32,000 nucleotides of DNA. It comes from Kineococcus radiotolerans SRS30216 = ATCC BAA-149. GTDB taxonomy: Bacteria; Actinomycetota; Actinomycetes; Actinomycetales; Kineococcaceae. How positions within the stretch are numbered: position 1 is the first letter of the stretch; each line of letters begins with the position of its first letter. Under the pieces are notes generated by a model. It was not told where the DNA came from, made no database searches, and was given only the letters and a program-made list of their open reading frames with translations. The translations under genes and the position numbers were made by a program. The stretch lies in the NCBI RefSeq assembly GCF_000017305.1, contig NC_009664.2:4620001-4652000 (forward strand), read 5' to 3'. Positions 1 to 25,131 of the stretch are shown here, one piece after another.

Positions 1-401
1 TCCTGCGCCCCGTGCGCGGCGGGGAGGCGGTGTACTTCCGTCCGCCGGCGTGGACGAGGGAGGGACGAGAGGGAGCGATCGAGGTCCCTTCCGGCCTGGA
101 CCTCGTCATCGTCGAGGGCGTCGGAGCCGCTCAACGGGAGCTGGCCGATGTCATCGATGCCACGGTGTGGGTGCAGTCCGACTTCGCTCAGGCCGAGGAG
201 CGGGGCATTGCCCGTGACAGCGCGCTGGGCGTCAACGGGGATCCGGTGGAGACCGTTGCATTCTGGCATGAGTGGATGGCCGAGGAGTTGCGCTTCCTGC
301 AGCAGCAGCGGCCGTGGGAACGGGCCTGTCTGATCGTCGCCGGAACCCCGCTCATCCCGTTGGACGATAACCAGGTCGCTGTCGCATCCGGCCCCCTGTG
401 A
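1..401 (+). CDS. P-loop uridine-kinase-like protein, C-terminal part (5' end outside window)
   Basis: The ORF is open to the window edge. The VIVEGVGA strand and following helices resemble uridine-kinase-family NTPases by recall. GC3-rich frame, TGA at 399-401. Confidence 0.5.
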   Translation, partial: LRPVRGGEAVYFRPPAWTREGREGAIEVPSGLDLVIVEGVGAAQRELADVIDATVWVQSDFAQAEERGIARDSALGVNGDPVETVAFWHEWMAEELRFLQQQRPWERACLIVAGTPLIPLDDNQVAVASGPL

Positions 402-406
402 ACCAC

Positions 407-472
407 GCGGCCATCGACAGGTCAGGACGTTCAGGGCCGGCCATGATCGCGCGCTGAGTGCGGGATGACCGG
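407..472 (+). repeat. Cassette-boundary repeat 1 (subtype A)
   Basis: Sequence gtcaggacgttcagggccggccatgatcgcgcgctgagtgcGGGATGACCgg, core at 462-470. Confidence 0.8.
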
Positions 473-587
473 ATGTTGGTGGGGGCGCGATCGCACCGCC
501 CCTGCCACCCTGCAGGCGGGGACCGATGAGGTTAAACGACATGGGCAGTCTGCCCGTCACCACCACATCAACCCCCAGGAGTTCGAC

Positions 588-875
588 ATGATCATCGTCG
601 CTGGTCACCTCGGCGTCGCCCACGAGGAGCGCGAGGCGTACTTGGCTGGCTGCTGTGACGTGGTGCAGCGGGCTCGGGGTGCTGAGGGCTGCCTGGATTT
701 CACCATCGCAGCGGACCTCGTGGACGCCGGTCGGATCAACGTCTTCGAGCGTTGGGCGTCGCAGGCAGCCGTGGAGGCCTTCCGTGGCAGCGGTCCGAGC
801 GAGGAGCAGGGCGCGGCGATCCGGTCGGCCTCGGTGGCCGAGTACGACGTGTCCAGGGCACGCTTCTTGACGTGA
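588..875 (+). CDS. ABM-domain (antibiotic biosynthesis monooxygenase-like) protein
   Basis: ATG at 588 follows AGGAG at 577-581. About 95 aa. The segment INVFERWASQAAVEAFRGS is typical of small ABM/ferredoxin-fold proteins. Confidence 0.7.
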   Translation: MIIVAGHLGVAHEEREAYLAGCCDVVQRARGAEGCLDFTIAADLVDAGRINVFERWASQAAVEAFRGSGPSEEQGAAIRSASVAEYDVSRARFLT

Positions 876-892
876 CGGCGTGCGCGTGGCCC

Positions 893-960
893 ACGCGGGC
901 ATCGGCGAGACCGTGACGTCCCGGGCGGCGGCGAAAGCGCGCACAACGCGGGATGACCGG
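893..960 (+). repeat. Cassette-boundary repeat 2 (subtype B)
   Basis: Left box gagaccgtgacgtc at 907-920. Right part gcgcgcacaacgcGGGATGACCgg, core at 950-958. Confidence 0.8.
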
Positions 961-1029
961 ACATTCCCCGTGCTGGTCCAGGCGCCGTTTCCCCAGCCGG
1001 AGGACGGCTGCCACGGTGGAGGGGTAAGC

Positions 1030-1701
1030 ATGCACAGCGAGGACTCCTTCCGATCCCGGCCTTTGAACGGCCTCCCGCTGCCGGCCTCGACCGCGGCCGC
1101 CGTGGAGTCGTTGCTGCCTCCGCGCGGGCGTCCTACCCGAGGTCCGGGCGAGCGGGGCCGGCTGGGGCACTTCGAGCCGATCCCGGAAGAAGCCGCAGCT
1201 GAGTGGCTGGGCTTCGCCCCGCCCACCTTGCCCAGCCTGAGCGGGTCCGGGTTCCGTCGGCACTTCGCACGCCAAGGTGGGCGCGACCTCGTCGCGCGGG
1301 CGGACCTGACTCGTGGGGAGAGTGCCGCGGTCTACGTCTTCTACTTGCCGGCGGGCTCGGCGTGGCGGGAGGAGACGAGGTTCGTCGAAGCACGCCGGGA
1401 GGGTCTGACGTTCTTGTGGCTGCGGGCGGGGTACGGGGTGCCCTGGCCTGAGGAGGAAGGAGGACCGGTGGGAGTGGAGGAGACCGCGACCATTGGTCGT
1501 GACCCTGCCAGTGGTGACTTCCTCACGCTGACGGTGGGCAGCACCCGGGTCGGGGTCCAGTACCAGCGAGGGGTGACTCGCCTGGCGTGGTCGTACCGTT
1601 CCCAGGACGCCGACTTCAACGTCACGGTGATGAGTGGGCGCTCACCGCGGGCGTCGGTGGAGATGCTGGTGAGCGACCGCGGCGCGCTCTACCTGGGCTG
1701 A
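1030..1701 (+). CDS. Hypothetical protein (duplicated cassette, copy A)
   Basis: ATG at 1030 follows GGAGG at about 1017-1021. GC3-rich. A near-identical paralog lies at 12298-12969. No family recognised. Confidence 0.6.
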   Translation: MHSEDSFRSRPLNGLPLPASTAAAVESLLPPRGRPTRGPGERGRLGHFEPIPEEAAAEWLGFAPPTLPSLSGSGFRRHFARQGGRDLVARADLTRGESAAVYVFYLPAGSAWREETRFVEARREGLTFLWLRAGYGVPWPEEEGGPVGVEETATIGRDPASGDFLTLTVGSTRVGVQYQRGVTRLAWSYRSQDADFNVTVMSGRSPRASVEMLVSDRGALYLG

Positions 1702-1725
1702 GACATGCTCCCTGCGTGAGGAGCT

Positions 1726-1774
1726 GTCGCATCACCGGTCACCGGAACCCGCCCAAATTGCGGGATGACCGTGA
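1726..1774 (+). repeat. Cassette-boundary repeat 3 (subtype C-like)
   Basis: Sequence gtcgcatcaccggtcaccggaacccgcccaaattgcGGGATGACCgtga, core at 1762-1770. Identical apart from 1 nt to repeat 15. Confidence 0.8.
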
Positions 1775-1819
1775 ACTAGCTCGACGAGGTCCAACTCCTC
1801 CTGCACGCGGCATGATGCG

Positions 1820-2272
1820 GTGATGGCGACGACGTCGACCGAGCGAGCACGGCGTGGTTCCCGCTACCGCGGGGAGCGGCTGCTGTGTGCGCTGGCGGTG
1901 CTGAGTCTGTCGGTGGCGGCCTGGCAGGTGTGGGTGAGCTGGTGGGCCGAGGATGCCCAGGCGCCGGCCGCGGCGGGGTGGTTGTACCTCGGTGCGGGCC
2001 TGACGTTGGCGGCGGCTGTGGTGCTCGGCAGTGTCCGTCTGGGGGTCCCGCTGCCGGTGGTGGTGGCGACGGTGGTGGTGTGCGCCACCGCGGCGTGGAC
2101 GCTGAAGGACACCGGAGGCCCGTTGTGGATGGTGGGGGTGCTCACCGTGGGCGTCGTCGCGGTGATGATCACTGGGCTGATCGGGACGCTGGTGGTGCTG
2201 TTGCGGGCCCGGGCTAACCTGCGGCGCGAGGTCCATGCACCCCCTTCCAAAGCACCGCGTGAGCGGGGCTGA
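1820..2272 (+). CDS. Integral membrane protein (about 4 hydrophobic segments)
   Basis: GTG at 1820 or ATG at 1823. Hydrophobic stretches include LCALAVLSLSVAAW and VVVATVVVCATAAW. GC3-rich. Confidence 0.6.
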   Translation: MMATTSTERARRGSRYRGERLLCALAVLSLSVAAWQVWVSWWAEDAQAPAAAGWLYLGAGLTLAAAVVLGSVRLGVPLPVVVATVVVCATAAWTLKDTGGPLWMVGVLTVGVVAVMITGLIGTLVVLLRARANLRREVHAPPSKAPRERG

Positions 2273-2314
2273 AGGCGCTACCGGGAGGCCCTTTGCAGAA
2301 AGCGCCGTCGCGGA

Positions 2315-2378
2315 CTTCGGCAGGACCACGACGTGGTCAGGCCAGTTGAGGCCGCCCGTATCGCGGGATGACCGTGCG
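2315..2378 (+). repeat. Cassette-boundary repeat 4 (subtype C)
   Basis: Sequence cttcggcaggaccacgacgtgg...gaggccgcccgtatcgcGGGATGACCgtgcg, core at 2365-2373. Confidence 0.8.
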
Positions 2379-2426
2379 TTCCCCGCGTCGGGAACGGATG
2401 CTCCGGCTGCTGGGGCTGCCGCTGCC

Positions 2427-3038
2427 TCAGCGCCGCTGCGCTGCCTCCTCCTCCTGCGGAGTCAGCAGCCACCGCGCGAAGCAGCCGCCATCCACTTCGG
2501 TGTACCAGCGAGCGGTGACCTGGAAGGTGGTGGCCGGCGCCACGGGTAGCCGTAGCCCGGCCGGAGCGTGGGCTGCTTCGGCACCGGTGACCGGGTGCGG
2601 CTTCAGCGTGGGGAACGGGCCTGGCGCCGAGTCGATGATCGGGCCGCTGTGCTCCCCGGTCCCGTCCAGCGCGGCGTTGTAGAGCACCAGCTCTCCGGTG
2701 CAGACGGTGAAAGTGCCCCCGGACTCGTCGTCGTCATCGAGGGGATGCTCCAGAGCGGCCTGCAGCACCGCCCCGTAGTCCTCGCCGGAGGCCTGCACGA
2801 TGCGGATGTGCTGCTGGTCGCAGAAGACCTCCAGCCAGCTCTCGTCGTTGACGGCGCCGTCGGGGGCGATGAGCCCGGCGCTGCCTTCTCCCACGGGGGT
2901 GCTCGTCACGCTCTGGCCCAGGTCGCAGAGGGGCTCGTAGTGGTCGTGGCTGAACCCGGCCCAGGAGGCCAGGTGGGGGGCGTCGAGGGCGAGGTAGATC
3001 TCGCCGTCGCTCCAGAGGCGACCCACGTGCGTCCACAT
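2427..3038 (-). CDS. Immunity-protein-like hypothetical (Imm21-like by recall)
   Basis: ATG at 3038 gives 203 aa, MWTHVGRLWSDGEIYLALDAPHLASWAGF... This is only the 3' third of the 546-aa track ORF; the rest is Arg/Pro-rich shadow sequence. The family call is from memory only. Confidence 0.55.
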   Translation of the reverse strand: MWTHVGRLWSDGEIYLALDAPHLASWAGFSHDHYEPLCDLGQSVTSTPVGEGSAGLIAPDGAVNDESWLEVFCDQQHIRIVQASGEDYGAVLQAALEHPLDDDDESGGTFTVCTGELVLYNAALDGTGEHSGPIIDSAPGPFPTLKPHPVTGAEAAHAPAGLRLPVAPATTFQVTARWYTEVDGGCFARWLLTPQEEEAAQRR

Positions 3039-3204
3039 CGGCTTCGCTCCCTTCGTCGAGGTGCTAGTCGCACCGGCTGCTGCGAACCCAGCCGCCACCC
3101 CAGCACGGCAGCCGGTGTTTGCATGATCTCGCACCTCGATCGACGTGAGGGCGCATGCGCGACCGGTCGTGAGACAGCGAGAGGGCGGCCACTCGTGATC
3201 ACAC

Positions 3205-3257
3205 CTGGATCGCGGGATGACCGTGCGCCCGCGGACCGCGGGATGAACGTGAGGTCG
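3205..3257 (+). repeat. Cassette-boundary repeat 5 (doublet core)
   Basis: Sequence ggatcgcGGGATGACCgtgcgcccgcggaccgcGGGATGAACgtgaggtcg, cores at 3214-3222 and 3240-3248, 26 bp apart. Confidence 0.8.
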
Positions 3258-3296
3258 TAGATGCCGGAATGAGGAGTTGATCGCTAGCGTGCGGGC

Positions 3297-3923
3297 ATGG
3301 ACCGTCGCCGCCGGTTGCTGACTGCCGCTCTGGCCGGTGTGGGCTACGGGGTCACCACCTCGGCGTTGAACGCGTTGTCCTCCCCGGACGGTGAGCTGGC
3401 CGGCACATGGTTGCAGTCCGGGCTGCGGGTGCTCAGCACGATGACGGGAGCTGGGTGGGCGTGGGCGGCGTTGGCCGTTGCCGCCGGCCGGTTCGTGAGG
3501 AGTCGGCGCTGGGGCGCTGCTGCGGGCGCGCTGGCCTTGGTGGCAGCCACGACGGTCTACTACGCGCTGGACAGCGTGCTGCGGGAGGAGCCCGTCGTGG
3601 ACTCCGACATCTGGTTCTGGAGCGCGGGTGCTGCGCTGCTGGGTCCGCCGCTGGGGGTCATCGGTGCCTACCTCGGGCGCCCCGGTGTTCTGGGGTTGCT
3701 GGCCGCGTTGACGGTTCCGGTGGGAGCCGGGGTGCAGGTGCTGGTGCTGCCGCAGGGTGTGGGCGGGGTGCAGGACGCACCCGAGGCAGTCTGGGCGCGG
3801 TGGATCGTGGCGGGGGCGGCTGTGGTCGCCGTCATCGTGGTGGTGCGTCGATGGTGGGCCATCCGAGGCGGGCGGGGCGGGCGGGATGCGGAGCTTGACG
3901 GGGCGGTCTCCTCGCCGCGGTGA
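3297..3923 (+). CDS. Integral membrane protein
   Basis: ATG at 3297. Several hydrophobic helices. GC3-rich. No family recognised. Confidence 0.6.
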   Translation: MDRRRRLLTAALAGVGYGVTTSALNALSSPDGELAGTWLQSGLRVLSTMTGAGWAWAALAVAAGRFVRSRRWGAAAGALALVAATTVYYALDSVLREEPVVDSDIWFWSAGAALLGPPLGVIGAYLGRPGVLGLLAALTVPVGAGVQVLVLPQGVGGVQDAPEAVWARWIVAGAAVVAVIVVVRRWWAIRGGRGGRDAELDGAVSSPR

Positions 3924-3952
3924 GCGCTCGTCGGTGTGCTCCTGCTCGGGCT

Positions 3953-4003
3953 GGCCCGTGGTCACAGCTGGCCGTGGCCGCGTCCGTATCGCGGGATGAC
4001 CGG
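3953..4003 (+). repeat. Cassette-boundary repeat 6 (subtype C)
   Basis: Sequence ...gccgcgtccgtatcgcGGGATGACCgg, core at 3993-4001. Confidence 0.8.
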
Positions 4004-4105
4004 GTGGTCGGCGCTGAGGCTCTGCTCCTTCCGTGGTGCTGAAGTTCGGCGAGCATGCGTTGGCCACGCCGGTTCAGAGGACGACCACCTGTCAGGGTGG
4101 TGGTC

Positions 4106-4363
4106 ATGGAGGCGGCGACGCTGTGTCGGGTGTGCGGGTGGAGCTTGGATGAGCCGGGGTGGGTCGACGGTCTCCCGCAGTACGTGATCTGCGACTGCTG
4201 CGGTGCGGAGTGTGGAGTGGATGAGCACTCCGCTGAAGCGGCACGGGGGTATCGGGCTGGGTGGGCGGCGCGGGGGTATCCGTGGTGGGACAGGGGGCAT
4301 CAGCCGGTGGGCTGGTCGTTCACCGAGCAGCAGCGTGAACTCATCCCCGCCGCCTATCGCTGA
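4106..4363 (+). CDS. Small Cys-rich (zinc-ribbon-like) protein
   Basis: ATG at 4106 (MEAATLCRVCGW...CDCCGAECG) gives CxxC plus a CxCCxxxC cluster. The start could instead be 4055. Confidence 0.5.
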   Translation: MEAATLCRVCGWSLDEPGWVDGLPQYVICDCCGAECGVDEHSAEAARGYRAGWAARGYPWWDRGHQPVGWSFTEQQRELIPAAYR

Positions 4364-4387
4364 GCCCTCTACATGAGGCGTGACGCC

Positions 4388-4441
4388 GGCCCCAGCGCGG
4401 GATGACCGTGCGCCTGCACCACGCGGGATGACCGTGACGTC
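4388..4441 (+). repeat. Cassette-boundary repeat 7 (doublet core)
   Basis: Sequence cagcgcGGGATGACCgtgcgcctgcaccacgcGGGATGACCgtgacgtc, cores at 4399-4407 and 4425-4433, 26 bp apart. Confidence 0.85.
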
Positions 4442-4519
4442 CTCCGCAGACTGAGTGCGGCTGTGATGCAACCGTGGGGCGCTGCCGCGGCGTACCAGGT
4501 GGTGAGGGGGTGATGGCCG

Positions 4520-5191
4520 GTGGGCGCGGACAGCGACACATCGTTCGACGACTTTGCCGTCGCGGCGATCCCGCGGCTGCGGCGGGTCGCCCACGCCTGG
4601 TGCCATGACTGGCACCACAGCGACGACGTCGTGCAGGACACCCTGGAACGCGTCTACGCTGCGTGGCCGCGGGTGCGCCGCAACGGGCAGGAGTACGCCT
4701 ACGCCCGCGCCACACTGGTGCACCGGCTGATCTCGGAGAACCGCCGCGCCTGGCGCCGCCACGAGACCACCGTGGACGAGCAAGGGCTCAGCGATGCTGC
4801 CGATGCTCATCCGGTCGCCGATAGCGCCGAGCAGAGCGCTGCGCGCCTGGACACCACCGACCTGCTGGCCCGCCTACCGCTGCGCCAACGCGCGGTCGCG
4901 GTGCTGCGCTTCGTGGAGGAGCTGCCGGTGACGCAGGTGGCCGAGCTGCTCGGGTGCTCAGAGGGCACCGTCAAGAGTCAGGCCCACCACGCCCGTACCG
5001 CTCTGCGCGCCCTGGGTCTTAGCGCGACGAGCGCGCCGGTTACACCGGCTGCGTCGTCCACGGTGTTGTCGCCCACGTCGGTCACGTCGCCCACGTCGGT
5101 CACGTCGCCCACGTCGCCCCCGTCGCCCACGTCGGCCGCCACCCCTGCTGACAGCTCACGGCCAGGCCCCGCCCGGAAAGGACGATCATGA
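4520..5191 (+). CDS. ECF / SigE-family RNA polymerase sigma-70 factor
   Basis: GTG at 4520 follows GAGGGGG. Region 2 (DDVVQDTLERVY) and region 4 (LPLRQRAVAVLRFVEELPVTQVAELLGCSEGTVKSQ) motifs are present. The tail is Ser/Pro/Thr-rich and repetitive. Confidence 0.8.
   Translation: MGADSDTSFDDFAVAAIPRLRRVAHAWCHDWHHSDDVVQDTLERVYAAWPRVRRNGQEYAYARATLVHRLISENRRAWRRHETTVDEQGLSDAADAHPVADSAEQSAARLDTTDLLARLPLRQRAVAVLRFVEELPVTQVAELLGCSEGTVKSQAHHARTALRALGLSATSAPVTPAASSTVLSPTSVTSPTSVTSPTSPPSPTSAATPADSSRPGPARKGRS
5068..5137 (+). repeat. In-frame 18-bp and 9-bp tandem repeat in the sigma-factor tail
   Basis: gtcgcccacgtcggtcac occurs twice, followed by 9-bp gtcgcccac-like units. It encodes SPTSVT SPTSVT SPTSPPSPTS. 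Confidence 0.7.
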
Positions 5192-5856
5192 TCGAGCAGT
5201 CTGAGGACCAGCCCGGCGACGTCGAGGTGGAGGCGCGGCTACGCCGGGACGTGCAGATGCGACCTGCTCCGCCGTTCGCCGCGGACCTGCAGGCCGTGAA
5301 GCGGCGGGGTCTGCGCCGGCGCCGGCGCCGGCAGCTCCTGCCCGCGGTCGTCGTGCTGGTGATCCTGGGCGCCGGGGCCACAGCAGTCAGCACGGGAATC
5401 CTGCCCGGCATGCAGCGGCAGGGAACGGTCACGGCCGTACCGGCCCAGGAGGCAGAAGGCGATGCTGCGGGCGCTGCAGGCATCCCGGCGTGGTGCCAGG
5501 GCGGGAGCATCAGCTACGACTACGACGGCACCGGTCCGGCTAGCCCAGAGCTGGCGGTGCAGTACCTCATCGACCTCACCACCGCTCAGGACGAGCACCT
5601 GGAGCAGCAGCCCGGGTCGGCGCAGGTCGACGACGCGCTGGCGAAAAACTCGGCCGTCGTGACGGCCTTGCAGGCGGTGAAGGAGCAGGCCACGCAAATG
5701 GGCGTGGACCGTGTCCGGCAGGACGGTTCCGTCGTTGCCCGTGATGGGAGCGGTGAGGTCATCGCGCGAGCTGAACTCGCGGAGGTCCAGCCAGGTCAGT
5801 GGAACGTCGTCACCCTCAGCTTCTCGCCCCCGGCTGTGCCTGAGTGCGGTCGGTGA
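5188..5856 (+). CDS. Membrane-anchored protein coupled to the sigma factor (possible anti-sigma or partner)
   Basis: ATGA start/stop overlap at 5188-5191. An Arg-rich segment is followed by one TM helix (LLPAVVVLVILGAGATAV) and an extracytoplasmic domain. Confidence 0.6.
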   Translation: MIEQSEDQPGDVEVEARLRRDVQMRPAPPFAADLQAVKRRGLRRRRRRQLLPAVVVLVILGAGATAVSTGILPGMQRQGTVTAVPAQEAEGDAAGAAGIPAWCQGGSISYDYDGTGPASPELAVQYLIDLTTAQDEHLEQQPGSAQVDDALAKNSAVVTALQAVKEQATQMGVDRVRQDGSVVARDGSGEVIARAELAEVQPGQWNVVTLSFSPPAVPECGR

Positions 5857-5893
5857 CGGTGGAGGTGATCGCGCTCGGTTGCCAGCAGGTCGT

Positions 5894-5939
5894 CTTGACG
5901 ATCGTGATTGCGCACTGAGTGCGGGATGACCGTGACGTC
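5894..5939 (+). repeat. Cassette-boundary repeat 8 (subtype A, short)
   Basis: Sequence cttgacgatcgtgattgcgcactgagtgcGGGATGACCgtgacgtc, core at 5923-5931. Confidence 0.8.
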
Positions 5940-5991
5940 GGATGCGTCGAACAGCCCTCCCCACCTGCCGGTGCGCGAGCATCATGCGGAG

Positions 5992-6441: not shown

Positions 6442-6468
6442 TCAGCGCCCACAACGTGGGATGACCGG
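6442..6468 (+). repeat. Cassette-boundary repeat 9 (subtype B, short)
   Basis: Sequence tcagcgcccacaacgtGGGATGACCgg, core at 6458-6466, 17 nt after the stop codon. Confidence 0.7.
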
Positions 6469-6532
6469 AAGGTTGTCGGCAACGGTGCGAAGACGCGCGG
6501 TTCAGGTCGTGCGGTTGTGCGAGGCTCCGACG

Positions 6533-7396: not shown

Positions 7397-7418
7397 CCTC
7401 CGCCGCAGCGGCGCTTGA

Positions 7419-8363: not shown

Positions 8364-8372
8364 CCGCTGTGG

Positions 8373-18100: not shown

Positions 18101-18130
18101 GAGGCGCCAGGTGAGCAGTCATCGAGCCAG

Positions 18131-18214: not shown

Positions 18215-18239
18215 TCAGCTCGTGCGCGTCTATGGGGGC

Positions 18240-19238: not shown

Positions 19239-19386
19239 GCACGCGGTCTCGCGCCGTCTCCCGGGCGGGGTGTGGGCGCTGCGGTGGCTTCGTCCGAGGC
19301 TGCCTGGGCTGCTTCGTCGTCGTAGATCATGCCGGTCATGCCGATCAGGCTGGCAGACGGGACTGCGGCTCTCGCCGGCACCTCGT

Positions 19387-19456
19387 GCTTCTCGGCAGAA
19401 CCGCGATGTCGACAGGCCAGTCGAGACCGCCCAGATCGCGGGATGACCGTGAAGTC
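19387..19456 (+). repeat. Cassette-boundary repeat 21 (subtype C, full length)
   Basis: Sequence gcttctcggcagaaccgcgatgtcgacaggccagtcgagaccgcccagatcgcGGGATGACCgtgaagtc, core at 19440-19448. Confidence 0.85.
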
Positions 19457-19474
19457 AGTGGCGGGACGTTGACC

Positions 19475-19918
19475 ATGCGCCAGGCTGGTGCCGTGACCAT
19501 CGAGATGACCCGAGGAGACCGGCAGAGCTTCTCCCGAGCCTCCTACGGACAGCATCTGCACCAAGTCTCCTTCGCCGGACAAGACCTGACCTCCGTAAGC
19601 ATCCCCAGGCTGCTGTGGCTCGAACGGTGCTCCTTCGACGGGGCGGACCTTCGCCAGGCCACGCTGGACGGCATGCACCTGAAGCTCTGCACCCTGAAGG
19701 ACGCGAACCTGCGCGGAGCCTCGCTACGAGGTGTCAGCTTCACCGGCTGTGACCTGACGGGAGCCGACCTGCGTGACGCAGACCTGCACGGGGCATCGTT
19801 TGGTGCCGTGAACACCGGCAACAGCAGCGGACGGACGGTGTTGAGCGGGGCGCTGCTCGATCAAGCTGCATTGGTCGACGCGGAGGTCGATGCCAGCACC
19901 GTGCTTCCGGAGGACTGA
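19475..19918 (+). CDS. Pentapeptide-repeat protein (MfpA/Qnr-like fold)
   Basis: ATG at 19475. Runs of A(D/N)LxG pentapeptides: CSFDGADLRQATLDGMHLKLCTLKDANLRGASLRGVSFTGCDLTGADLRDADLHGASF. Confidence 0.75.
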   Translation: MRQAGAVTIEMTRGDRQSFSRASYGQHLHQVSFAGQDLTSVSIPRLLWLERCSFDGADLRQATLDGMHLKLCTLKDANLRGASLRGVSFTGCDLTGADLRDADLHGASFGAVNTGNSSGRTVLSGALLDQAALVDAEVDASTVLPED

Positions 19919-19930
19919 CGCAAGTCTCGC

Positions 19931-19977
19931 GAGGGACCGGGACCTGGCTGTGTCACGGATTGCGGGATGACCGCGCG
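19931..19977 (+). repeat. Cassette-boundary repeat 22
   Basis: Sequence gagggaccgggacctggctgtgtcacggattgcGGGATGACCgcgcg, core at 19964-19972. Confidence 0.75.
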
Positions 19978-20005
19978 TTTTGGACGGAGTGCCATGGGCG
20001 GGGTC

Positions 20006-20581
20006 CTATAAATGGTGGGGTTGCTGTCTTGCCCGCTCGGCGGCGAGTAGGCGCTGCACCAGCTCAGACTTGGCCTCGAGGTAGGCCTGCCGGTCGGTGC
20101 GCAGCAGGGGAGCTATCCGCTTCTTCAACGCTCCGTACTCGGCCGCGGCCGCAGGGTGGCAGCGCAGGTGCTCGCGCAGGAGTACGTGGTCCAGGTGGGG
20201 CTGGCTGCCATCGATGACGACGTAGAGGTGGTGGTAGGGCAGATCGGGTCGAGCCTGCAAGGCTTGCCTTCCGGGAATGCCGAGGTCACCTTCGGGTGTC
20301 CATCCTCCGCTGGCCAGGGCGTGTACTGCGGCACGCGAGGCGTGCTCGTCGGCGACGACGACGTCCACGTCGATGATTGGCTTGGCGGCCAGGCCGGGAA
20401 CGGCGGTGGAGCCGACATGCTCGATGCTCAGAGCGACGTCGGCGACCAGCGGGTGAAGGCAGGAGCGCAGCATGTCGAAGTCCTCACGCCAGTGGGGGTC
20501 GTAGTCGACGACGACTGCGGGTGGGGTGTGAGTCGCCTCATCGCCCCGGCGGGTTCGTGCGGTACCTGGCGAGTCGTCCAT
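20006..20581 (-). CDS. GrpB-family protein (nucleotidyltransferase fold)
   Basis: ATG at 20581. Signature VVVDYDPHWREDF...IEHVGSTAVPGLAAKPIIDVDVVV...HHLYVV...REHLRCHPAAAAEYGALK matches GrpB. Confidence 0.8.
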   Translation of the reverse strand: MDDSPGTARTRRGDEATHTPPAVVVDYDPHWREDFDMLRSCLHPLVADVALSIEHVGSTAVPGLAAKPIIDVDVVVADEHASRAAVHALASGGWTPEGDLGIPGRQALQARPDLPYHHLYVVIDGSQPHLDHVLLREHLRCHPAAAAEYGALKKRIAPLLRTDRQAYLEAKSELVQRLLAAERARQQPHHL

Positions 20582-20642
20582 GATGCTCAGCTTGCCCGAG
20601 TAGCAGCAGCTGCCGGCCGGGGGGACACATCCGGAACTCAGC

Positions 20643-20697
20643 AGCTCAGGACGTCCGAGGCCGGCCATGATCGCGCACTGAGCGCAGGATGACCACG
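20643..20697 (+). repeat. Cassette-boundary repeat 23 (subtype A, variant core)
   Basis: Sequence gctcaggacgtccgaggccggccatgatcgcgcactgagcgcAGGATGACCacgcg, core at 20685-20693. Confidence 0.8.
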
Positions 20698-20731
20698 CGG
20701 TGCTCAGCAGATGGCCTACGCCAGGACGCGG

Positions 20732-21222
20732 TCAGTCCGGCCGGTGGCTCCCCGCAGCTCCGTCGATGAGCTCGCGCAGGATGTCCATGTGCCCGGCATG
20801 GCGCGCGGTCTCCTCAACCAAGCCGATGAGGACTCGGCGCAGGCTGACCTGATCACCGAACCACGCCGTGCCCACGTCCTCGATGCCGTGCTCGGCGATC
20901 ACCGCATCGAAAGCGGCGCGGGCGCGTCCGTAGAAGGCGACGATGTCAGCGCTCGACTCGTGCGGGCCGGCGTTCATGTCGGCGACGGGATCGGTCTCCA
21001 GCACCTCCGTCACTCGGCCGTAGGTCGTAGGCAGCCACTCGTACTCGACCCCGGCGAGGTGTTTGACCAGCCCAGCAGGTTGGTGCCCGTGGGGGTCATG
21101 GGCCGGCGCAGCTGCTCCTCGTCGAGGCCCTCTAGCTTCCACAGGACGGCGTCGCGGTGGCGGTCGAGGCTGATGTGCAAGCTGGTCTTCTCCTCACCCC
21201 TGAGCGGCACCCGCTTCGCCAT
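20732..21222 (-). pseudogene. DinB/DUF664-family (mycothiol-transferase-like) gene with a 1-nt frameshift
   Basis: The N-terminal half MAKRVPLRGEEKTSLHISLDRHRDAVLWKLEGLDEEQLRRPMTPTGTNLLG is in one frame. LVKHLAGVEYEW...EETARHAGHMDILRELIDG continues in another frame. The junction at about 21065-21078 (ctgctgggctggtc on the - strand) is consistent with one missing base. Confidence 0.7.
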
Positions 21223-21339
21223 GGCAGCCACCCTCCCATCACCCTGCCATGACCTCGACACCGCAAGACCCCTCGGAGGCCACCCCAGCCACGCAGCGGG
21301 CGCGGCGGGCGCGTGTGGGCTTCCCGATACGGTCCTGCG

Positions 21340-21786
21340 GTGCCTCACGACCGCTTCCGCCTGCCCGTCGCCGTCTACGGGATCCTGCGGGTCGGAGAGC
21401 AGGTTCTGATGCTGCGCCGCGCCGGCACCACCTTCCGCGCAGGTCAGCTGAGCCTGCCCGCCGGGCACCTGGAGGGCGGGGAGGACGCCGTGGCCGGGTT
21501 GCTACGCGAGCTGCGCGAGGAGGTCGGCGTCGAGGCGACGCCGACCGACTGCCGCCTGGCGCTGGTGGTGCACTCAGCGCCCGAGGACGAGGACGATCTG
21601 GAGTACCTGCACCTGTTCTTCGTCCTGGAACAGTGGAGCGGTGAGCCGGTCGTTGGTGAGCCGGACAAGTGCAGCGAGCTGGTGTGGGTGAGTCCGGCTG
21701 CGTTGCCCGGCGATGTCGTGGACTACGTGGCCGAGGCGCTTCAGGCGATCGAGCGGGGTGAGTCCTTGCTGCTGCACGGCTGGTGA
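21340..21786 (+). CDS. NUDIX hydrolase
   Basis: Nudix box GHLEGGEDAVAGLLRELREEVGV. The start is uncertain (GTG at 21340 or 21313). Divergent from the DinB pseudogene. Confidence 0.8.
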   Translation: MPHDRFRLPVAVYGILRVGEQVLMLRRAGTTFRAGQLSLPAGHLEGGEDAVAGLLRELREEVGVEATPTDCRLALVVHSAPEDEDDLEYLHLFFVLEQWSGEPVVGEPDKCSELVWVSPAALPGDVVDYVAEALQAIERGESLLLHGW

Positions 21787-21821
21787 CCAGGCGCGGTCCT
21801 GGGGCGCGGATGGACTACCCA

Positions 21822-21909
21822 GCCATCGCCGTGTCCGGGGCATCGCCGGCAGCTCAGGACCGCGCACAACGCGGGATGACCGCGCGGACGGCGGGATGAC
21901 CGTGAAGTC
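21822..21909 (+). repeat. Cassette-boundary repeat 24 (subtype B, doublet core)
   Basis: Sequence gccatcgccgtgtccggggcatcgccggcagctcaggaccgcgcacaacgcGGGATGACCgcgcggacggcGGGATGACCgtgaagtc. Cores at 21873 and 21893, 20 bp apart. Confidence 0.85.
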
Positions 21910-21966
21910 GTCTCACCGCGCGGAGCGCGGCTACTGCGGCTGCAGCGGTGCTCACGAGGCGGGGCC

Positions 21967-22476
21967 TCAGATGTGCACGGCGTCTTCGCTGGTGCTGTAG
22001 CCGCCGCGTTGGGCTAGGAGTAGGTGCTGGGACTGGCTGAAGATGGGGAGGCGTCGGAAGGTCTGACGGAAGCCCTCTGCGCGGAAGCGCACGTCGAAGT
22101 CGGATCCGGCGATGTGCCAGCCCTCAGTGGTGCGGGTGATGTCGGAGATGTCCAGCCAGCCTGTGCCGCCGGCGGTGTTCATGCCGATGTTGAGGTCCAT
22201 CACGCGGTGGAAGATCAGCGTGGCGGGGGCGACCCAGAAGTCGTAGAGGCCGCGGCGTGGGTCCCGCAGTCGGCGGCGGGGTGGCTCGACCCAGCGGGTG
22301 ATGTAGTCGAGGTCGATGACGAGGCGGTCCATCAGCCAGTCGACGTCCTCGGCGTAGGGCTCTTCGGTCTTCTGGATGGTGAAGGACCACATGGTGGCGT
22401 CGTGCCAGCCCATGTCGGCAAAGTCGGCCTCGGTCCAGACGGCCTTGGCCAGGCCGTGCTCGTGCTCGGTCGTCAC
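21967..22476 (-). CDS. Hypothetical protein (immunity-protein-like size and composition)
   Basis: 169 aa, GC3-rich, MTTEHEHGLAKAVWTEADFADMGWHDATMWSF... No family recognised. Confidence 0.6.
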   Translation of the reverse strand: MTTEHEHGLAKAVWTEADFADMGWHDATMWSFTIQKTEEPYAEDVDWLMDRLVIDLDYITRWVEPPRRRLRDPRRGLYDFWVAPATLIFHRVMDLNIGMNTAGGTGWLDISDITRTTEGWHIAGSDFDVRFRAEGFRQTFRRLPIFSQSQHLLLAQRGGYSTSEDAVHI

Positions 22477-22518
22477 CGCAGCAGGCTATCGAGGCACGGG
22501 GCGCGTTCTGGGCCCAAG

Positions 22519-22548
22519 ACGTACCGCAGCGCGGGATGACCGGTAGAT
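22519..22548 (+). repeat. Cassette-boundary repeat 25 (short)
   Basis: Sequence acgtaccgcagcgcGGGATGACCggtagat, core at 22533-22541. Confidence 0.7.
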
Positions 22549-22580
22549 CGGCCGTGTGCTCGTTGCGGCAGGCTAGGGCC

Positions 22581-22820
22581 ATGGACGGCACCTGGGACGC
22601 GGAGGTCGACGCGGCTTACATCGACTTGAGTGGCGACTGCACCGACCTCGCACTGGAGCAGGTCATCGTGGACACGGGGTCGAAGGAGTACGAGGTGATC
22701 CTTGACTTCAGCACCGCGGGTCGTCTGCTGGGAGTCGAGGTGCTGGGCGCTACGACTGCCCTAGACCCTGCTCTGCTCCGGACGCTGCGTCGTATCGACG
22801 GGTCGGCAGAAGCGCACTGA
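22581..22820 (+). CDS. DUF2283-like small protein
   Basis: ATG at 22581. The segment DAEVDAAYIDLSG...ILDFSTAGRLLGVEVLGAT recalls DUF2283. Its last codons and TGA stop (22818-22820) lie inside repeat 26. Confidence 0.65.
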   Translation: MDGTWDAEVDAAYIDLSGDCTDLALEQVIVDTGSKEYEVILDFSTAGRLLGVEVLGATTALDPALLRTLRRIDGSAEAH

Positions 22821-22836
22821 GCGCGGGATGACCGGA
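22806..22836 (+). repeat. Cassette-boundary repeat 26 (subtype A, short, overlaps a gene end)
   Basis: Sequence gcagaagcgcacTGAgcgcGGGATGACCgga, core at 22825-22833. The same gcagaagcgcNctgagcgcgg string occurs in repeat 19. Confidence 0.8.
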
Positions 22837-22925
22837 TGCTTGTCGGGGACCATCCTGACCGGTGGCTGCGCCCGCGTCTGCAAGGAGCGACCCACCCAGG
22901 AGGCGCGCCCAGTACCGTCGCGCCT

Positions 22926-23333
22926 GTGACGGATGAGGAGTTCGACGCCCTGTGGAACCGTGCGTGCGAGTGGGACGCTCCGGCCATCAAGACCCACCGC
23001 GGGGATGAGGCTCTGCACGTCGCGCTGACCTTCCACGGCAGCGTCATGAACGGCGGCCTGCTGGACGCGGTGGAGAACTACGGCGAGGACCTCGAGTACC
23101 CCCTGCCCCGGGTGCTGCAGGCCTACCGCTTCCTGGGCCTGGACGCCGTCGCCTCGATCATCGAGCGGGCACGCCAGGAGTACGAAGAGCTGGCGGGTGC
23201 TGACGGCCAGGTGCACGACGACCTCACCGCGGAGCGCGTCGACGCCTCGTACTCCTTGGACGGCGACGCTCTCAGTGCCGCAGCCCGTGCCGTGGTGGAG
23301 GCGTCTCCGAACGGCTTCGCCCCGCTCAGCTGA
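22926..23333 (+). CDS. Hypothetical protein (DMP19/DUF4375-like by weak recall)
   Basis: GTG at 22926 (VTDEEFDALWNR...). The segment HGSVMNGGLLDAVENYG recalls the NGG motif of DUF4375-type proteins. Confidence 0.55.
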   Translation: MTDEEFDALWNRACEWDAPAIKTHRGDEALHVALTFHGSVMNGGLLDAVENYGEDLEYPLPRVLQAYRFLGLDAVASIIERARQEYEELAGADGQVHDDLTAERVDASYSLDGDALSAAARAVVEASPNGFAPLS

Positions 23334-23403
23334 GAGCACCACCAGCCTGATCCGTGCTCGGGCACCGTCCGTACTTCGACAGATGAGTGAAGTCGCCAGC
23401 CGC

Positions 23404-23438
23404 CAGCGTCAGCGCGCACATCGCGGATGATCGTGCGG
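23404..23438 (+). repeat. Cassette-boundary repeat 27 (degenerate)
   Basis: Sequence cagcgtcagcgcgcacatcgcGGATGATCgtgcgg. The core has lost one G and has a C-to-T change. Confidence 0.55.
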
Positions 23439-23476
23439 TTGAAGCCTCGGCTGCGGGTAGCGACGGAGCGCTGATG

Positions 23477-23830
23477 CTAGAAGGGGATGCGTGGGCTGCG
23501 TAGCTCGCCGATGAGCAGGGCGAGCACCTTGCCGTCTTCGCTCTCCCAGCGCTGCAGCCCGCCTTCGTTGTTCACGAAGCGGACCAGGCCGGCTTTGATG
23601 ATCTTGCGTCGTTCGGCGTCGGTGGCCACACGCTTGGACCCCACGCGGGGGTTGGGGCTGCAGTCGAGGAGGTTGAAGACCATGACGTCGGCGGCGTTGA
23701 GCAGGTCGCTTTCGCGCTTCCAGAGGCGGTCGCTGGTCAGGTGGTAGGTGCGGGTGCCGTCTCAGAAGAGGTCGTCGTCGGTGTACTCCGGTTCCCCCGG
23801 CTGCAGGGGGTAGCCGCTCCAGTCCTTCAC
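23477..23830 (-). pseudogene. Hypothetical gene interrupted by an in-frame TGA
   Basis: - strand frame: VKDWSGYPLQPGEPEYTDDDLF, then TGA at 23762-23764, then DGTRTYHLTSDRLWKRESDLLNAADVMVFNLLDC...RIPF. Alternatively only the 68-aa ORF 23477-23683 is real. GC is lower than in the neighbours. Confidence 0.4.
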
Positions 23831-23896
23831 CGCAGCAGCATGTCCTGTGGCTCCTCAGCCTGCCAGCGACTTCCCGACCGAGCGGGTGACCCGAGG

Positions 23897-23936
23897 CCGC
23901 TCAGTGCCAGGCCAGCGCGATGACCGTGACGTCGGT
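23897..23936 (+). repeat. Cassette-boundary repeat 28 (degenerate)
   Basis: Sequence ccgctcagtgccaggccagcgcGATGACCgtgacgtcgg. The GGG of the core is lost but ATGACCGTGACGTC is intact. Confidence 0.55.
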
Positions 23937-24045
23937 CAGGGTGCGTCGGGTGGGCGTCGGGTGGGCGCCGGGTGGGGCGCGTCCGTGTGGGTGATTTGCC
24001 TCGGCATCGTCAGGCGTCGGAGTGCAGGCCTGTTAGCTTCCGGCG

Positions 24046-24288
24046 GTGCGCTACCGCTTCAAGCCCAGCAAGCCGGCCGCCGTCCTGGGCGCGTTCGTCG
24101 GGGCGGGCATGCTGGTGTTCGGCATCAGCAGCTTCAAGGACACAGACTCACGTCCCTTCATGATCTTCTGGTGCCTCGTCGTCGTCGCCATCGTCGTCTT
24201 CAACCTGTGGTCGGCGTTCAGCACCAAGGGGTCCTCGGGGTCCTTCGAGGCCACCGACGATGAGCATGACCACCGCCCCCGCCGGTGA
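24046..24288 (+). CDS. Small two-TM membrane protein
   Basis: ATG at 24046. Two hydrophobic helices (AAVLGAFVGAGMLVFGI and FMIFWCLVVVAIVVFNLW) and an acidic tail. Confidence 0.55.
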   Translation: MRYRFKPSKPAAVLGAFVGAGMLVFGISSFKDTDSRPFMIFWCLVVVAIVVFNLWSAFSTKGSSGSFEATDDEHDHRPRR

Positions 24289-24414
24289 AGAGGCGGTCCC
24301 GGCGAGAGAACGGTTCCGGTGAGGAACGGCCGAGGATGCGCAGGACAGGCAACCCGCCGTGAGCGCAAGGCGGGTAGAGCAAGCAGGGCAGGTAGCGCAG
24401 TCGAGCGCTGACCG

Positions 24415-25062
24415 GTGGTGGCCTGCCGCGGTGGGCGCAACGAACCCGGTGGTCCCGGTGGGCTCGGTGGCCCCGGTGGGCTCGGTGACGGGGTGAGCAG
24501 CAGCGCCGGACGGTGGGCGACGCCCCCACGTCGCTGGCACCGCCCGTCCTGGGATGAGGCGGCCGGCTCGTTCTTCTGGGTCACCTTCGTCGCGGGGGTC
24601 CTGCTGGCCGCTACCGGTGACTGGGCAAGCCTGGTGGTGGGGAGCGGCTCGATGCTGGTGGGGGCGATCAGCAGCTACCACCACGCCGATGAGGAAGCTC
24701 CCTACGCCAAGCGTTTCTCCCAACCTCTTGATGCAGCGACCCAGCAGCTCGTGCACGACAGCGTGAGCGAGGGCCGGTGGCCGCCAGAGGCGGCGCTGCG
24801 GGAGCTGGGGCTGGCCTACGCCGCAGGATGGGCGCGGCGGGTGCGGCGGGGTCTGGCCATCGCTGTTGTGGTCGTTGTCGGGTCCTGCCTGGCCTGTGCG
24901 TTGCTGGTGTGGCTGCTCGATCAGCGCTGGCCGGAGTCGACCCCGACGAGGTCGTGGGGGGTGGTGATCACCGTGGCGGGGGCGGTGGGATGGCTGCTTA
25001 CCGCGGTCGTTCCCGGGATGAGACGTCTGCGGGCACTGCGCCGCCTGCAACGGTCCGCGTGA
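24415..25062 (+). CDS. Membrane protein (start uncertain)
   Basis: Hydrophobic helices FFWVTFVAGVLLAATG, LAIAVVVVVGSCLACALLVWLL and WGVVITVAGAVGWLLTAVV. The first 25-40 codons overlap an 18-bp tandem and may not be coding. Confidence 0.45.
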   Translation: MVACRGGRNEPGGPGGLGGPGGLGDGVSSSAGRWATPPRRWHRPSWDEAAGSFFWVTFVAGVLLAATGDWASLVVGSGSMLVGAISSYHHADEEAPYAKRFSQPLDAATQQLVHDSVSEGRWPPEAALRELGLAYAAGWARRVRRGLAIAVVVVVGSCLACALLVWLLDQRWPESTPTRSWGVVITVAGAVGWLLTAVVPGMRRLRALRRLQRSA

Positions 25063-25065
25063 CGT

Positions 25066-25131
25066 CTCGCGGGATACCGGCTCGCGACCGGTCGACCACG
25101 TCCGGCCTCGGTCACCGTGACGACGTCACCA
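25066..25131 (+). repeat. Cassette-boundary repeat 29 (terminal, degenerate)
   Basis: ctcgcGGGATACCggctcg is the core lacking one base. The near-palindromic box ggtcaccgtgacgacgtcacc lies at 25111-25131. This is the last recognisable copy before the replication region. Confidence 0.45.

Follow-up and report, generated by a model that had tools for sequence, protein, structure and literature searches.

A 24-kb stretch of the chromosome of Kineococcus radiotolerans SRS30216 is a string of about 27 small, apparently swappable gene cassettes separated by one ~30-bp site that always points in the same direction. Related genomes carry the same arrays together with an Xer-like tyrosine recombinase which is inferred to be dedicated to them. 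The system therefore looks like an integron-type gene-capture system, namely a non-IntI, non-attC integron analogue, in a phylum (Actinomycetota) in which complete integrons have not been found (PMC9024848). This reading has moderate confidence. Recombination itself remains unproven, in the absence of data on circular intermediates and junction reads and of a detectable copy of the recombinase in the source strain. No published description of such a system was found. The window, that is, the whole stretch of DNA analysed, comprises 32,000 nucleotides (NC_009664.2, positions 4,620,001 to 4,652,000), and the array occupies its positions 1-23926, which are the downstream part of a chromosomal array running off the left edge.

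The core GCGGGATGACCG occurs 24 times exactly in the window, against 0.02 occurrences expected. A PWM built from the sites of other genomes gives 31 hits above the best shuffle score, all of them on the + strand and located at 26 loci from 460 to 23915, whereas none lie on the − strand and none beyond 23926. Five more degenerate copies (8345, 16469, 16494, 17328, and 23421) bring the total to about 36 copies at 28 loci. The first-pass annotation had reported about 35 copies at 29 loci, all intergenic and on the + strand, and the observation is confirmed with two corrections: the array ends with the last site at 23915-23926 and not at 25131, and the conserved element is about 30 nt long (CGCgCnnAnC-GCGGGATGACCG-TGAgGTCG) rather than 12-19 nt. 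No site overlaps a GC3-supported CDS. Between the PWM sites there are 25 complete units of 292-2008 bp (median 812), or 27 if the two degenerate sites are counted. Each unit holds one gene or a coupled pair, such as an ECF sigma factor plus its partner or MarR plus MFS. About a third of the genes are on the − strand, so each cassette presumably carries its own promoter. No recombinase was found in the window by tblastn or Pfam searches. The coordinates of the sites and of the main cassette genes are collected in Table 1.

Table 1. Sites, cassettes, and flanking region in the window. L followed by a number denotes a locus compared with the window.
Position	Strand	Feature	Remarks
1..23926	+	Cassette array	Runs off the left edge; at least 28 site loci and about 27 cassettes; 69.8% GC
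460..471	+	Site 1	Core GCGGGATGACCG; the full site spans about −12 to +8 around it
948..959	+	Site 2	The window and L002/L004 diverge after GCGGGATG (position 955)
1760..1771	+	Site 3	
2363..2374	+	Site 4	
3212..3249	+	Site 5	Two tandem copies 26 nt apart
3991..4002	+	Site 6	
4397..4434	+	Site 7	Two tandem copies
5921..5932	+	Site 8	
6456..6467	+	Site 9	GTGGGATGACCG
7474..7485	+	Site 10	
8291..8363	+	Site 11	Three tandem copies (8291, 8317, 8345)
10325..10364	+	Site 12	Two tandem copies; homology with L101 and L073 ends here
11532..11543	+	Site 13	
12216..12227	+	Site 14	
13028..13039	+	Site 15	
13370..13381	+	Site 16	
15346..15357	+	Site 17	GTGGGATGATCG
16444..16509	+	Site 18	One full copy plus two degenerate tandem copies (16469, 16494)
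17328..17347	+	Degenerate site	GCGCGG-ATGACGGTGAAGTC, one G deleted; homology with the MOSC cassette of L095 starts here
18195..18206	+	Site 20	Homology with L095 ends here
19438..19449	+	Site 21	
19962..19973	+	Site 22	
20684..20695	+	Site 23	GCAGGATGACCA
21871..21902	+	Site 24	Two tandem copies 20 nt apart
22531..22542	+	Site 25	
22823..22834	+	Site 26	
23421..23438	+	Degenerate site	TCGCGG-ATGATCGTGCGG; homology with L101 and L087 starts here
23915..23926	+	Last site	GCGCGATGACCG; downstream end of the array
8244..8262	+	Variant second site (example)	TCGGCAGGACCGCGCTGTC; about 50 nt upstream of a canonical site, making a "long unit"; others at 902-920 and 11486-11504
956..1767	+	Duplicated cassette	Duplicated at 12224-13035 (805 of 812 identical)
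12224..13035	+	Duplicated cassette, second copy	
588..875	+	ABM monooxygenase cassette gene	ABS03853; an identical copy, ABS03738, lies elsewhere in the genome
4520..5856	+	ECF sigma factor plus overlapping partner gene	In one cassette
8373..10067	−	564-aa hypothetical protein	Cassette shared with L101 (92% identity) in a different context
10462..11406	+	APH-family kinase	Cassette shared with L083, L115, and L057 (about 87% identity)
11556..12110	−	DUF2716 cassette gene	
13438..15290	−	MFS transporter plus MarR-type regulator	In one cassette
17450..18100	+	MOSC-domain cassette gene	
18240..19238	−	Second APH-family kinase	
19493..19918	+	Pentapeptide-repeat protein	
20006..20668	−	GrpB	
21340..21786	+	NUDIX hydrolase	
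22926..23333	+	DMP19-like (immunity-type) protein	
23927..32000		Non-array flank	No sites; RepA_C-like gene at 28410-29252

The conserved element is an asymmetric sequence site and not an attC-like hairpin. Indeed, an upstream complement occurs in 8.5% of the units against a mean of 5.5% for scrambled motifs, RNAalifold finds no consensus structure, and no covariation was detected. The statement of the first-pass annotation that there is no attC core is also right. The site has only weak dyad symmetry, which is unusual for the core site of a tyrosine recombinase.

The same site forms co-oriented arrays in at least 15 Kineococcus species. In these arrays, 312 of 322 cores lie on the majority strand of their block, and across 71 sequences 97% of cores share the local strand. 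Only 3.8% of the cores (10 of 262) lie in CDS against 62% coding (p about 4e-92). There are 176 cassettes with a median of 775 bp, and gene orientation relative to the site is 100 same-strand to 98 opposite. The motif is not spread evenly on both strands. In the complete chromosome of Kineococcus sp. DHX-1, it forms one ~45-kb run (2,158,520-2,203,432), all on one strand and with none in the 5 kb to its left, plus a second cluster near 4.70 Mb. Flanks are also site-free in the window and in L128. The cargo is highly diverse: the blocks encode 552 predicted proteins, of which the largest family has 7 members. As in chromosomal integrons, it includes PIN, Phd, and VapB toxin-antitoxin genes, GNAT, APH, and NUDIX, with 79 families in all.

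Cassettes behave as independent modules whose boundaries fall inside GCGGGATG. Window cassettes occur at 85-92% identity in other species in a different order, with homology ending at the core, and L101 joins window cassettes that lie 13 kb apart. Of 28 homology ends, 8 lie within 15 nt of a core, against 3.9% expected. A 100%-identical two-cassette block has different neighbours on both sides, with breakpoints inside GCGGGATG: the window and L002 diverge after GCGGGATG, and L001/L002 and L003 diverge just before GCGGGATGACCG. However, this block may represent two paralogous copies in one genome (ABS03738 and ABS03853) rather than strain polymorphism, and L001 could be an assembly join across the duplicated cassette.

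A conserved Xer-like tyrosine recombinase of about 310 aa, which is neither IntI nor XerC/D, sits inside these arrays on the strand opposite to the sites in 8 of 9 loci examined. This was observed in 6 of 6 Kineococcus loci, including one fetched independently of the motif, and in Cellulomonas and Motilibacter, whose site differs by one base (GCGGCATGASCG). Jatrophihabitans is the exception, with sites on both strands. The protein matches PF00589, conserves the catalytic residues R..K..HxxR..H..Y, and has XerD as the best solved structure. Its gene is itself bracketed by sites and lies near the upstream end of the arrays, where the first-pass annotation had guessed that the machinery would lie. 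In four genera, a site is found 70-120 nt upstream of the int start. In metagenomic loci, 68 hits lie on the int strand and 24 on the opposite strand, against 11.8 expected per strand, with a peak just upstream of int. Conversely, in Spirillospora and in the MAG locus L134 there are few sites beyond the one next to int. No K. radiotolerans member was found in the ten closest recombinase clusters. The interpretation of the first-pass annotation, that the stretch is a recombination-site-delimited cassette array, is supported: the distribution of the motif, the rearrangement of cassettes, and the association with a recombinase, each of which it had proposed as a test, came out in its favour as far as the tools allowed.

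It is inferred that the recombinase recombines pairs of sites. Since all sites are direct repeats, recombination between two of them would excise a cassette as a circle carrying one site, and the reverse reaction would insert it at any site. That would account for shuffling, duplication, and exchange. Strand exchange would fall in the invariant centre, around the short dyad CGCGG-GATGA-CCGyG. Because the recombinase gene is itself cassette-like, it can be lost, and the K. radiotolerans array may be an orphan array (the analogue of a CALIN) or may be served in trans.

Alternatively, the arrays could be real recombination-site cassette arrays worked by a different enzyme, either the host XerC/XerD (Krad_3139 and Krad_1691) or an unlinked recombinase. 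In this case, the ~310-aa recombinase would be a passenger, i.e., a small integrative element that uses the same site for attachment or simply accumulates in permissive accessory DNA. This is considered unlikely, although there is evidence for it. K. radiotolerans keeps a 24-kb array without a detectable copy, and the recombinase family is very large and very conserved (more than 6,700 homologs, 72-94% identity across orders), being far more widespread and conserved than the arrays seen so far. It could thus be an independent mobile element that merely targets or accumulates in arrays. Some loci have only the int-proximal site, and a second, unrelated Xer-like gene lies 2 kb past the end of the DHX-1 array. 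However, the orientation relative to the sites is constant in 8 of 9 loci, a site sits next to int in several genera, and the site variant changes together with the recombinase lineage. In addition, the site has no resemblance to a dif site and none was found in the window, subject to the accuracy of the dif consensus used.

A REP- or MITE-like repeat that has proliferated locally, with the apparent cassette behaviour arising from homologous recombination or slippage between copies, is considered less likely still. The copies are indeed short, intergenic, and numerous, have sequence subfamilies, and often form tandem runs of 26-28 nt, and the window lacks a recombinase. Yet there is no hairpin, 97% of copies are co-oriented, copies are clustered in arrays with site-free flanks, there is about one copy per gene boundary with hypervariable cargo, a recombinase is associated with the arrays, and an identity of 12-30 nt is generally too short for efficient homologous recombination. 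A regulatory element (operator, promoter, terminator, or insulator) shared by a regulon of accessory genes appears very improbable. The intergenic placement, the strongly conserved sequence, and the TGACGTC-like and short dyad elements would fit, but the site has a fixed orientation while that of the genes varies, so it lies 5′ of some genes and 3′ of others. Moreover, it shows no terminator-like fold and no Rfam family match, and a regulatory role does not explain homology breakpoints inside the core. As for a divergent classical integron (IntI plus attC), the overall layout and the cargo resemble sedentary chromosomal integrons, but this possibility is contradicted by the tests performed and is only remote. 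The recombinase scores 46-54 bits against the integron-integrase model (cutoff 265), and only over the C-terminus, and IntI4 is a marginal match (7e-5) while XerD scores 6e-19. There is no RYYYAAC/GTTRRRY motif and no attC fold, and the genes show no co-orientation.

Sedentary chromosomal integrons, such as the Vibrio superintegron, share with these arrays the long series of tens of small, mostly single-gene cassettes with one co-oriented recombination site per boundary, as well as a hypervariable cargo rich in toxin-antitoxin modules and GNAT acetyltransferases. Cassettes can be duplicated within an array, a tyrosine recombinase is encoded on the opposite strand near the upstream end with a site close to its start, and orphan arrays without the recombinase may exist. 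On the other hand, the recombinase described here is a plain Xer-like enzyme without the IntI signature, and it lies inside the array rather than on a fixed platform. The site is conserved in sequence rather than being a structure-conserved, sequence-variable hairpin, and a single Pc promoter cannot serve cassette genes that show no orientation bias.

The Bacteroidales rAID-1 (recombinase-associated acquired interbacterial defence) clusters (Ross et al.; bioRxiv 10.1101/471110) also link a XerD-family tyrosine recombinase to an array of small accessory genes with repetitive intergenic sequences, and they were described by their authors as reminiscent of integrons. Some of the cargo found here is likewise immunity-type (DMP19, SMI1_KNR4, Imm8, WapI). 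However, rAID-1 is defined by a 5′ recombinase followed by co-directional genes with a GC of 41% or lower, mostly immunity genes and up to about 31 genes, and is restricted to Bacteroidales. Here, genes lie in both orientations, the recombinase is on the strand opposite to the sites, the cargo is broad, arrays reach about 45 kb, and the phylum and the site differ. In the Acinetobacter pdif modules and other Xer-dependent elements (IMEX), accessory genes are bounded by short sites for a Xer-type tyrosine recombinase. The pdif sites appear to be 28-bp dif-like XerC/XerD sites which flank modules in inverted orientation, lie on plasmids, and use the host XerCD, whereas the sites described here are co-oriented, chromosomal, and not dif-like, and come with a non-XerC/D recombinase. 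REP/BIME elements with RAYT transposases are also short, abundant, intergenic repeats that sometimes occur in tandem. REPs are usually palindromic, dispersed, and found in both orientations, while the present sites are not palindromic, are confined to arrays, and coincide with cassette boundaries.

The sequence GCGGGATGACCG occurs 24 times exactly in the window, always on the + strand, against 0.02 occurrences expected. When up to two mismatches are allowed, 47 matches are obtained, 40 of them on the + strand, against 10 expected for both strands together. A position weight matrix (PWM) was built from sites in other genomes, excluding the sites that matched the search pattern, and it gives 31 window hits above the best score in shuffled sequence. 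All of them are on the + strand and are distributed over 26 loci, whereas none is found on the - strand and none further right. Five more degenerate copies were found by mismatch search and by comparison with other species, which gives about 36 copies at 28 loci, close to the 35 copies at 29 loci counted in the first-pass annotation. The downstream end of the array had instead been placed too far to the right, at 25131, in that annotation. No site overlaps a CDS supported by third-position GC.

The PWM sites delimit 25 complete units of 292-2008 bp, with a median of 812 bp. These units contain an ABM monooxygenase, an ECF sigma factor plus partner, two APH-family kinases, DUF2716, MarR plus MFS, MOSC, a pentapeptide-repeat protein, GrpB, NUDIX, DUF2283 and DMP19, together with several proteins with no family match, and about a third of the genes are on the - strand. 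Interestingly, the core contains an ATG (GGGATGACC), and the GenBank protein ABS03853 (136 aa) starts at that ATG inside the repeat, whereas the 95-aa version starts after a plausible ribosome-binding site. Repeat-derived false starts may affect annotation across these arrays. Sites are often tandemly repeated with a 20-28-nt period, forming "empty" mini-cassettes, with up to 6 copies in Kineococcus sp. DHX-1 and a 17-copy 34-nt run of the Motilibacter site variant.

Coordinates of features in the window and in the related sequences with which it was compared (L-numbers designate individual loci or contigs)
Feature	Sequence	Position	Strand	Remark
PWM sites	window	460 to 23915	+	31 hits at 26 loci
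End of the array	window	23926
Degenerate site copies	window	8345, 16469, 16494, 17328 and 23421		last two with one G deleted
Tandemly repeated sites	window; L124; L131	window 3212/3238, 4397/4423, 8291/8317/8345, 10325/10353, 16444/16469/16494, 21871/21891; L124 1442-1579; L131 14993-15548
ATG inside the core and start of the 95-aa version of ABS03853	window	465 and 588
Duplicated cassette encoding a hypothetical protein	window	956-1767 and 12224-13035		812 bp, 805 of 812 bases identical
Cassettes joined directly in L101	window	8325-10332 and the one starting at 23421		13 kb apart in the window
Stretch without ORFs supported by third-position GC	window	24300-28100		3.8 kb
RepA_C-like "replication protein RepA" gene (ABS03813)	window	28410-29252
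Change of sign of GC skew	window	about 27200
Immunity-type protein families (DMP19, SMI1_KNR4, Imm8, WapI)	window; L131; L132; L215	window 22926-23333; L131 9175-9819; L132 8001-8360; L215 2705-3202
Array	Kineococcus sp. DHX-1 chromosome	2,158,520 to about 2,203,432	every site on one strand	no site in the 5 kb to its left
Second cluster of sites	Kineococcus sp. DHX-1 chromosome	near 4.70 Mb
Second Xer-like tyrosine recombinase	L124 (DHX-1)	5375-6400	same strand as the sites	about 2 kb past the downstream end of the array
Two convergent clusters of sites	L132 (Jatrophihabitans sp. DSM 45814)	3010-5310 and 7993-9821	opposite orientations	next to the recombinase gene
Palindrome containing the recombinase start codon	L069; L062	L069 about 4275-4300; L062 about 2963-2990
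IS110-family transposase genes	L013; L128; L134; L215	L013 422-2020; L128 2002-3240 and 6143-7213; L134 6501-7842, 15057-16397 and 17584-18924; L215 5505-6854

When aligned on the core, 272 non-tandem units from the window and 70 Kineococcus sequences show a conserved block of about 30 nt, CGCgCnnAnC-GCGGGATGACCG-TGAgGTCG. An attC-like hairpin was considered because some window units carry GGTCATCGGCAGGACCG... about 50 nt upstream, GGTCATC is complementary to GATGACC, and one such unit folds into a long imperfect stem. However, this hypothesis fails on several counts. Fold z-scores are not significant, only 26% of units have the upstream segment, and a complement to the core is no more frequent upstream than for scrambled motifs (8.5% against a mean of 5.5% and a maximum of 9.6%). 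RNAalifold finds no consensus structure in 39 long units (-4.6 kcal/mol, with a covariation term of 0.01), and an inner palindrome noticed by eye pairs no better than shuffled partners (71% against 72%). The segment is not the start of a small minus-strand gene either, as the peptides are not conserved and are full of stop codons.

Comparison of one APH cassette in four species shows that the segment travels with the gene, while the ~25 nt between it and the core switches between repeat subfamilies. Its sequence, TCGGCAGGACCGyGACGTC, matches the Cellulomonas form of the core, GCGGCATGACCG, at 10 of 12 positions. A "long unit" is therefore best read as two sites in tandem, like the frequent 26-28-nt tandem copies. 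The only symmetry observed is a short dyad, CGCGG-GATGA-CCGyG, and no Rfam family matches.

The window lies on the Kineococcus radiotolerans SRS30216 chromosome, from ABS03853 at the left to ABS03813 at the right, and the genome paper (PMC2587704) does not mention the repeat. Of the sequences with hits, about 70 are from at least 15 Kineococcus species and carry several copies each, and the rest are single hits in unrelated taxa. In the Kineococcus blocks plus the window, 312 of 322 cores (97%) lie on the majority strand of their block, and only 10 of 262 lie within a predicted CDS, although 62% of the array span is coding (p about 4e-92). There are 176 cassettes with a median of 775 bp, usually with one gene each, and genes are on the same strand as the site 100 times and on the opposite strand 98 times. 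In the complete chromosome of Kineococcus sp. DHX-1, the sites form one array of about 45 kb and a second cluster. This clustering, together with the co-orientation of the sites, argues against genome-wide dispersal in both orientations.

The 552 predicted proteins in these blocks are extremely diverse, and the largest family has 7 members. Of 147 cassette proteins, the commonest families are PIN (8), GNAT acetyltransferases (8), APH (4), AAA_33 kinases (4), NUDIX (3) and PhdYefM (3), among 79 families in all, which resembles the cargo of chromosomal integrons. Window cassettes recur in other species at 85-92% identity in different contexts; for example, the related locus L101 joins directly two cassettes that are far apart in the window. 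Homology ends lie within 15 nt of a core in 8 of 28 cases, against 3.9% expected.

Contigs from other sequencing runs (L001 to L004) carry the first two window cassettes at 100% identity but with different neighbours. To the right, ...CGCACAACGCGGGATG is followed by ACCGGACATT in the window and by TGCGGATGTT in L002/L004, where a minus-strand acetyltransferase comes next. To the left, GCGGGATGACCGTGAAG is preceded by ...CACCATT in L001/L002 and by ...CCTGAGC in L003. The exchange point therefore lies within GCGGGATG. However, the ABM gene exists twice in SRS30216 (ABS03853 and ABS03738), so these may be two copies in one genome rather than strain differences, and no closely related pairs were found among the blocks compared for strain-level gain or loss. 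Either way, it is a recent duplication or transfer bounded exactly by cores. One cassette is also duplicated within the window, and contig L001 joins the left context of the first copy to the right context of the second, which is either a deletion variant or an assembly join.

Clustering of the block proteins revealed one recurrent larger family, a tyrosine recombinase of about 310 aa (PF00589, E=1e-24) in which the catalytic residues R, K, HxxR, H and Y are conserved. It scores far below the NCBIfam cutoffs for XerC/XerD (113-120 bits against 330-335) and is multi-copy in some genomes; the genome paper assigns XerC/D to Krad_3139 and Krad_1691 (PMC2587704). It also scores far below the cutoff for integron integrase (TIGR02249 / NF011946; 46-54 bits against 265), and only over the C-terminus. 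Its best solved relative is XerD (6e-19), while IntI4 is marginal (7e-5). It is thus a "simple" Xer-like recombinase in the sense of PMC8138268. In DHX-1, a second Xer-like tyrosine recombinase (341 aa, about 29% identical to the array-associated one) is also found.

With sites oriented on the + strand, the recombinase gene is on the - strand in all five block loci and in K. endophyticus, which was retrieved through the protein and not through the motif. Sites lie on both sides of the gene, and a variant site abuts its stop codon. In DHX-1 the gene sits four cassettes in from the upstream end of the 45-kb array. In two Kineococcus loci, L069 and L062, its start codon lies within the perfect palindrome GGTCATGACC, which resembles the core and could be an autoregulatory site or a recombination site.

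The family has more than 6,700 members at E<1e-30, with 72-94% identity across Kineococcus, Cellulomonas, Motilibacter, Jatrophihabitans, Actinomadura and Spirillospora, and its site variants are GGGATGACC, GGCATGASC and GGCAAGAGC. In Cellulomonas sp. ATA003, 12 of 13 copies of CGSTCATGCCGC (the reverse complement of GCGGCATGASCG) lie on the recombinase's strand, and the array stops at the recombinase plus toxin-antitoxin module. In Motilibacter peucedani, 27 of 28 do, including a 17-copy tandem run; here, 19 copies of a motif that resembled an array are a 34-bp tandem run, and the real evidence is the set of dispersed co-oriented copies. In Jatrophihabitans, by contrast, the sites lie on both strands, 5 and 5, in two convergent clusters, a layout that could be produced by a past inversion between sites. 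A site lies 70-120 nt upstream of the recombinase start in four genera, and in 57 metagenomic loci there are 68 hits on the recombinase's strand and 24 on the other, against 11.8 expected per strand, with a peak just upstream of the gene. No copy of the recombinase is present in the window, beyond which the source genome was not read, and none of the ten closest recombinase clusters contains a K. radiotolerans protein.

The simplest account of these data is an integron-like system, in which a dedicated recombinase exchanges strands in the invariant centre of a ~30-bp site. Recombination between two direct repeats would release a cassette circle, and the reverse reaction would insert it at any site. 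Co-orientation is what such a system requires, because inverted sites would invert DNA rather than excise it, and the lack of gene-orientation bias implies that cassettes bring their own promoters. In this scheme, catalysis by this recombinase, the circular intermediates and the exact cleavage positions are inferred, whereas the sites, their polarity, their clustering, the modular boundaries and the recombinase association are supported directly by the sequences.

Other explanations seem less probable. It is unlikely, although not to be dismissed, that the recombinase is a passenger and that some other enzyme does the work, and somewhat more doubtful that a REP-like repeat combined with homologous recombination is responsible, as the hairpin expected of a palindromic repeat is not supported by the folding, complementarity and covariation analyses. 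A regulatory element is considered very unlikely. A divergent true integron is the most remote possibility, since the array shares with integrons a series of mobile single-gene cassettes with variable content and one site per boundary, but it has no IntI, its site is conserved in sequence rather than in an attC fold, and its cassettes are not co-oriented and promoterless.

Bacteroidales rAID-1 clusters resemble this system in pairing a XerD-family recombinase with repetitive intergenic sequences. They are defined by a 5′ XerD-like recombinase with at least 44% identity to BF9343_RS08045, close homologs of which are reported by the authors to be restricted to Bacteroidales, and by two or more co-directional downstream genes of low GC, mostly immunity genes. 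Here, genes lie in both orientations, the cargo is dominated by toxin-antitoxin genes, GNAT and kinases with only a few immunity-type families, which recall the orphan immunity arrays of Bacteroidales, and the site and the phylum also differ. As regards pdif modules, which appear to have 28-bp dif-like XerC-spacer-XerD sites in inverted orientation, the present sites are co-oriented and are associated with a dedicated enzyme; no dif-like sequence was found in the window with a probable actinobacterial consensus, to which the core bears no resemblance.

Integrons are the model system for gene capture by site-specific recombination, and IntegronFinder 2.0 reports that Actinobacteria lack complete integrons, for reasons that are called unclear (PMC9024848). 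No description of the present system was found in the literature examined, the coverage of which was incomplete, so that prior description cannot be excluded. It is about as likely as not that Actinobacteria have their own, independently evolved integron analogue, consisting of a highly conserved, horizontally spreading Xer-like tyrosine recombinase that is itself cassette-borne and of a ~30-bp double-stranded site (GCGG[G/C]ATGACCG core), which together build chromosomal arrays of tens of self-expressed cassettes in either orientation. Such a system would span several orders (Kineosporiales, Micrococcales, Motilibacterales and probably more) and would be abundant in soil metagenomes. A different recombinase-and-site pair that does the same job would explain part of the gap of integrons in this phylum and would show that cassette arrays have evolved more than once. 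It would also give a simple marker, a 12-30-nt site plus one recombinase family, for mining accessory genes in a biotechnologically important phylum. The arrays carry toxin-antitoxin, drug-modifying (APH, GNAT), detoxification and immunity-type genes. In addition, a plain 30-bp double-stranded site with a small Xer-like enzyme could be a useful recombination tool for high-GC bacteria.

The remaining 8 kb to the right of the array has no sites and includes a stretch without supported ORFs, followed by the RepA_C-like gene. This may be a remnant of an integrated plasmid-like element. There was no match in the plasmid collection, and the source is the chromosome. GC skew is positive across the whole array and changes sign in this flank, which suggested the vicinity of the replication terminus or dif; in the absence of a dif-like site by the probable consensus, the change may mark a replication landmark or only gene-strand composition. 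Finally, IS110-family transposase genes recur inside or next to the arrays and, since IS1111/IS110 elements appear to target integron attC sites and REPs, they may target this site too.
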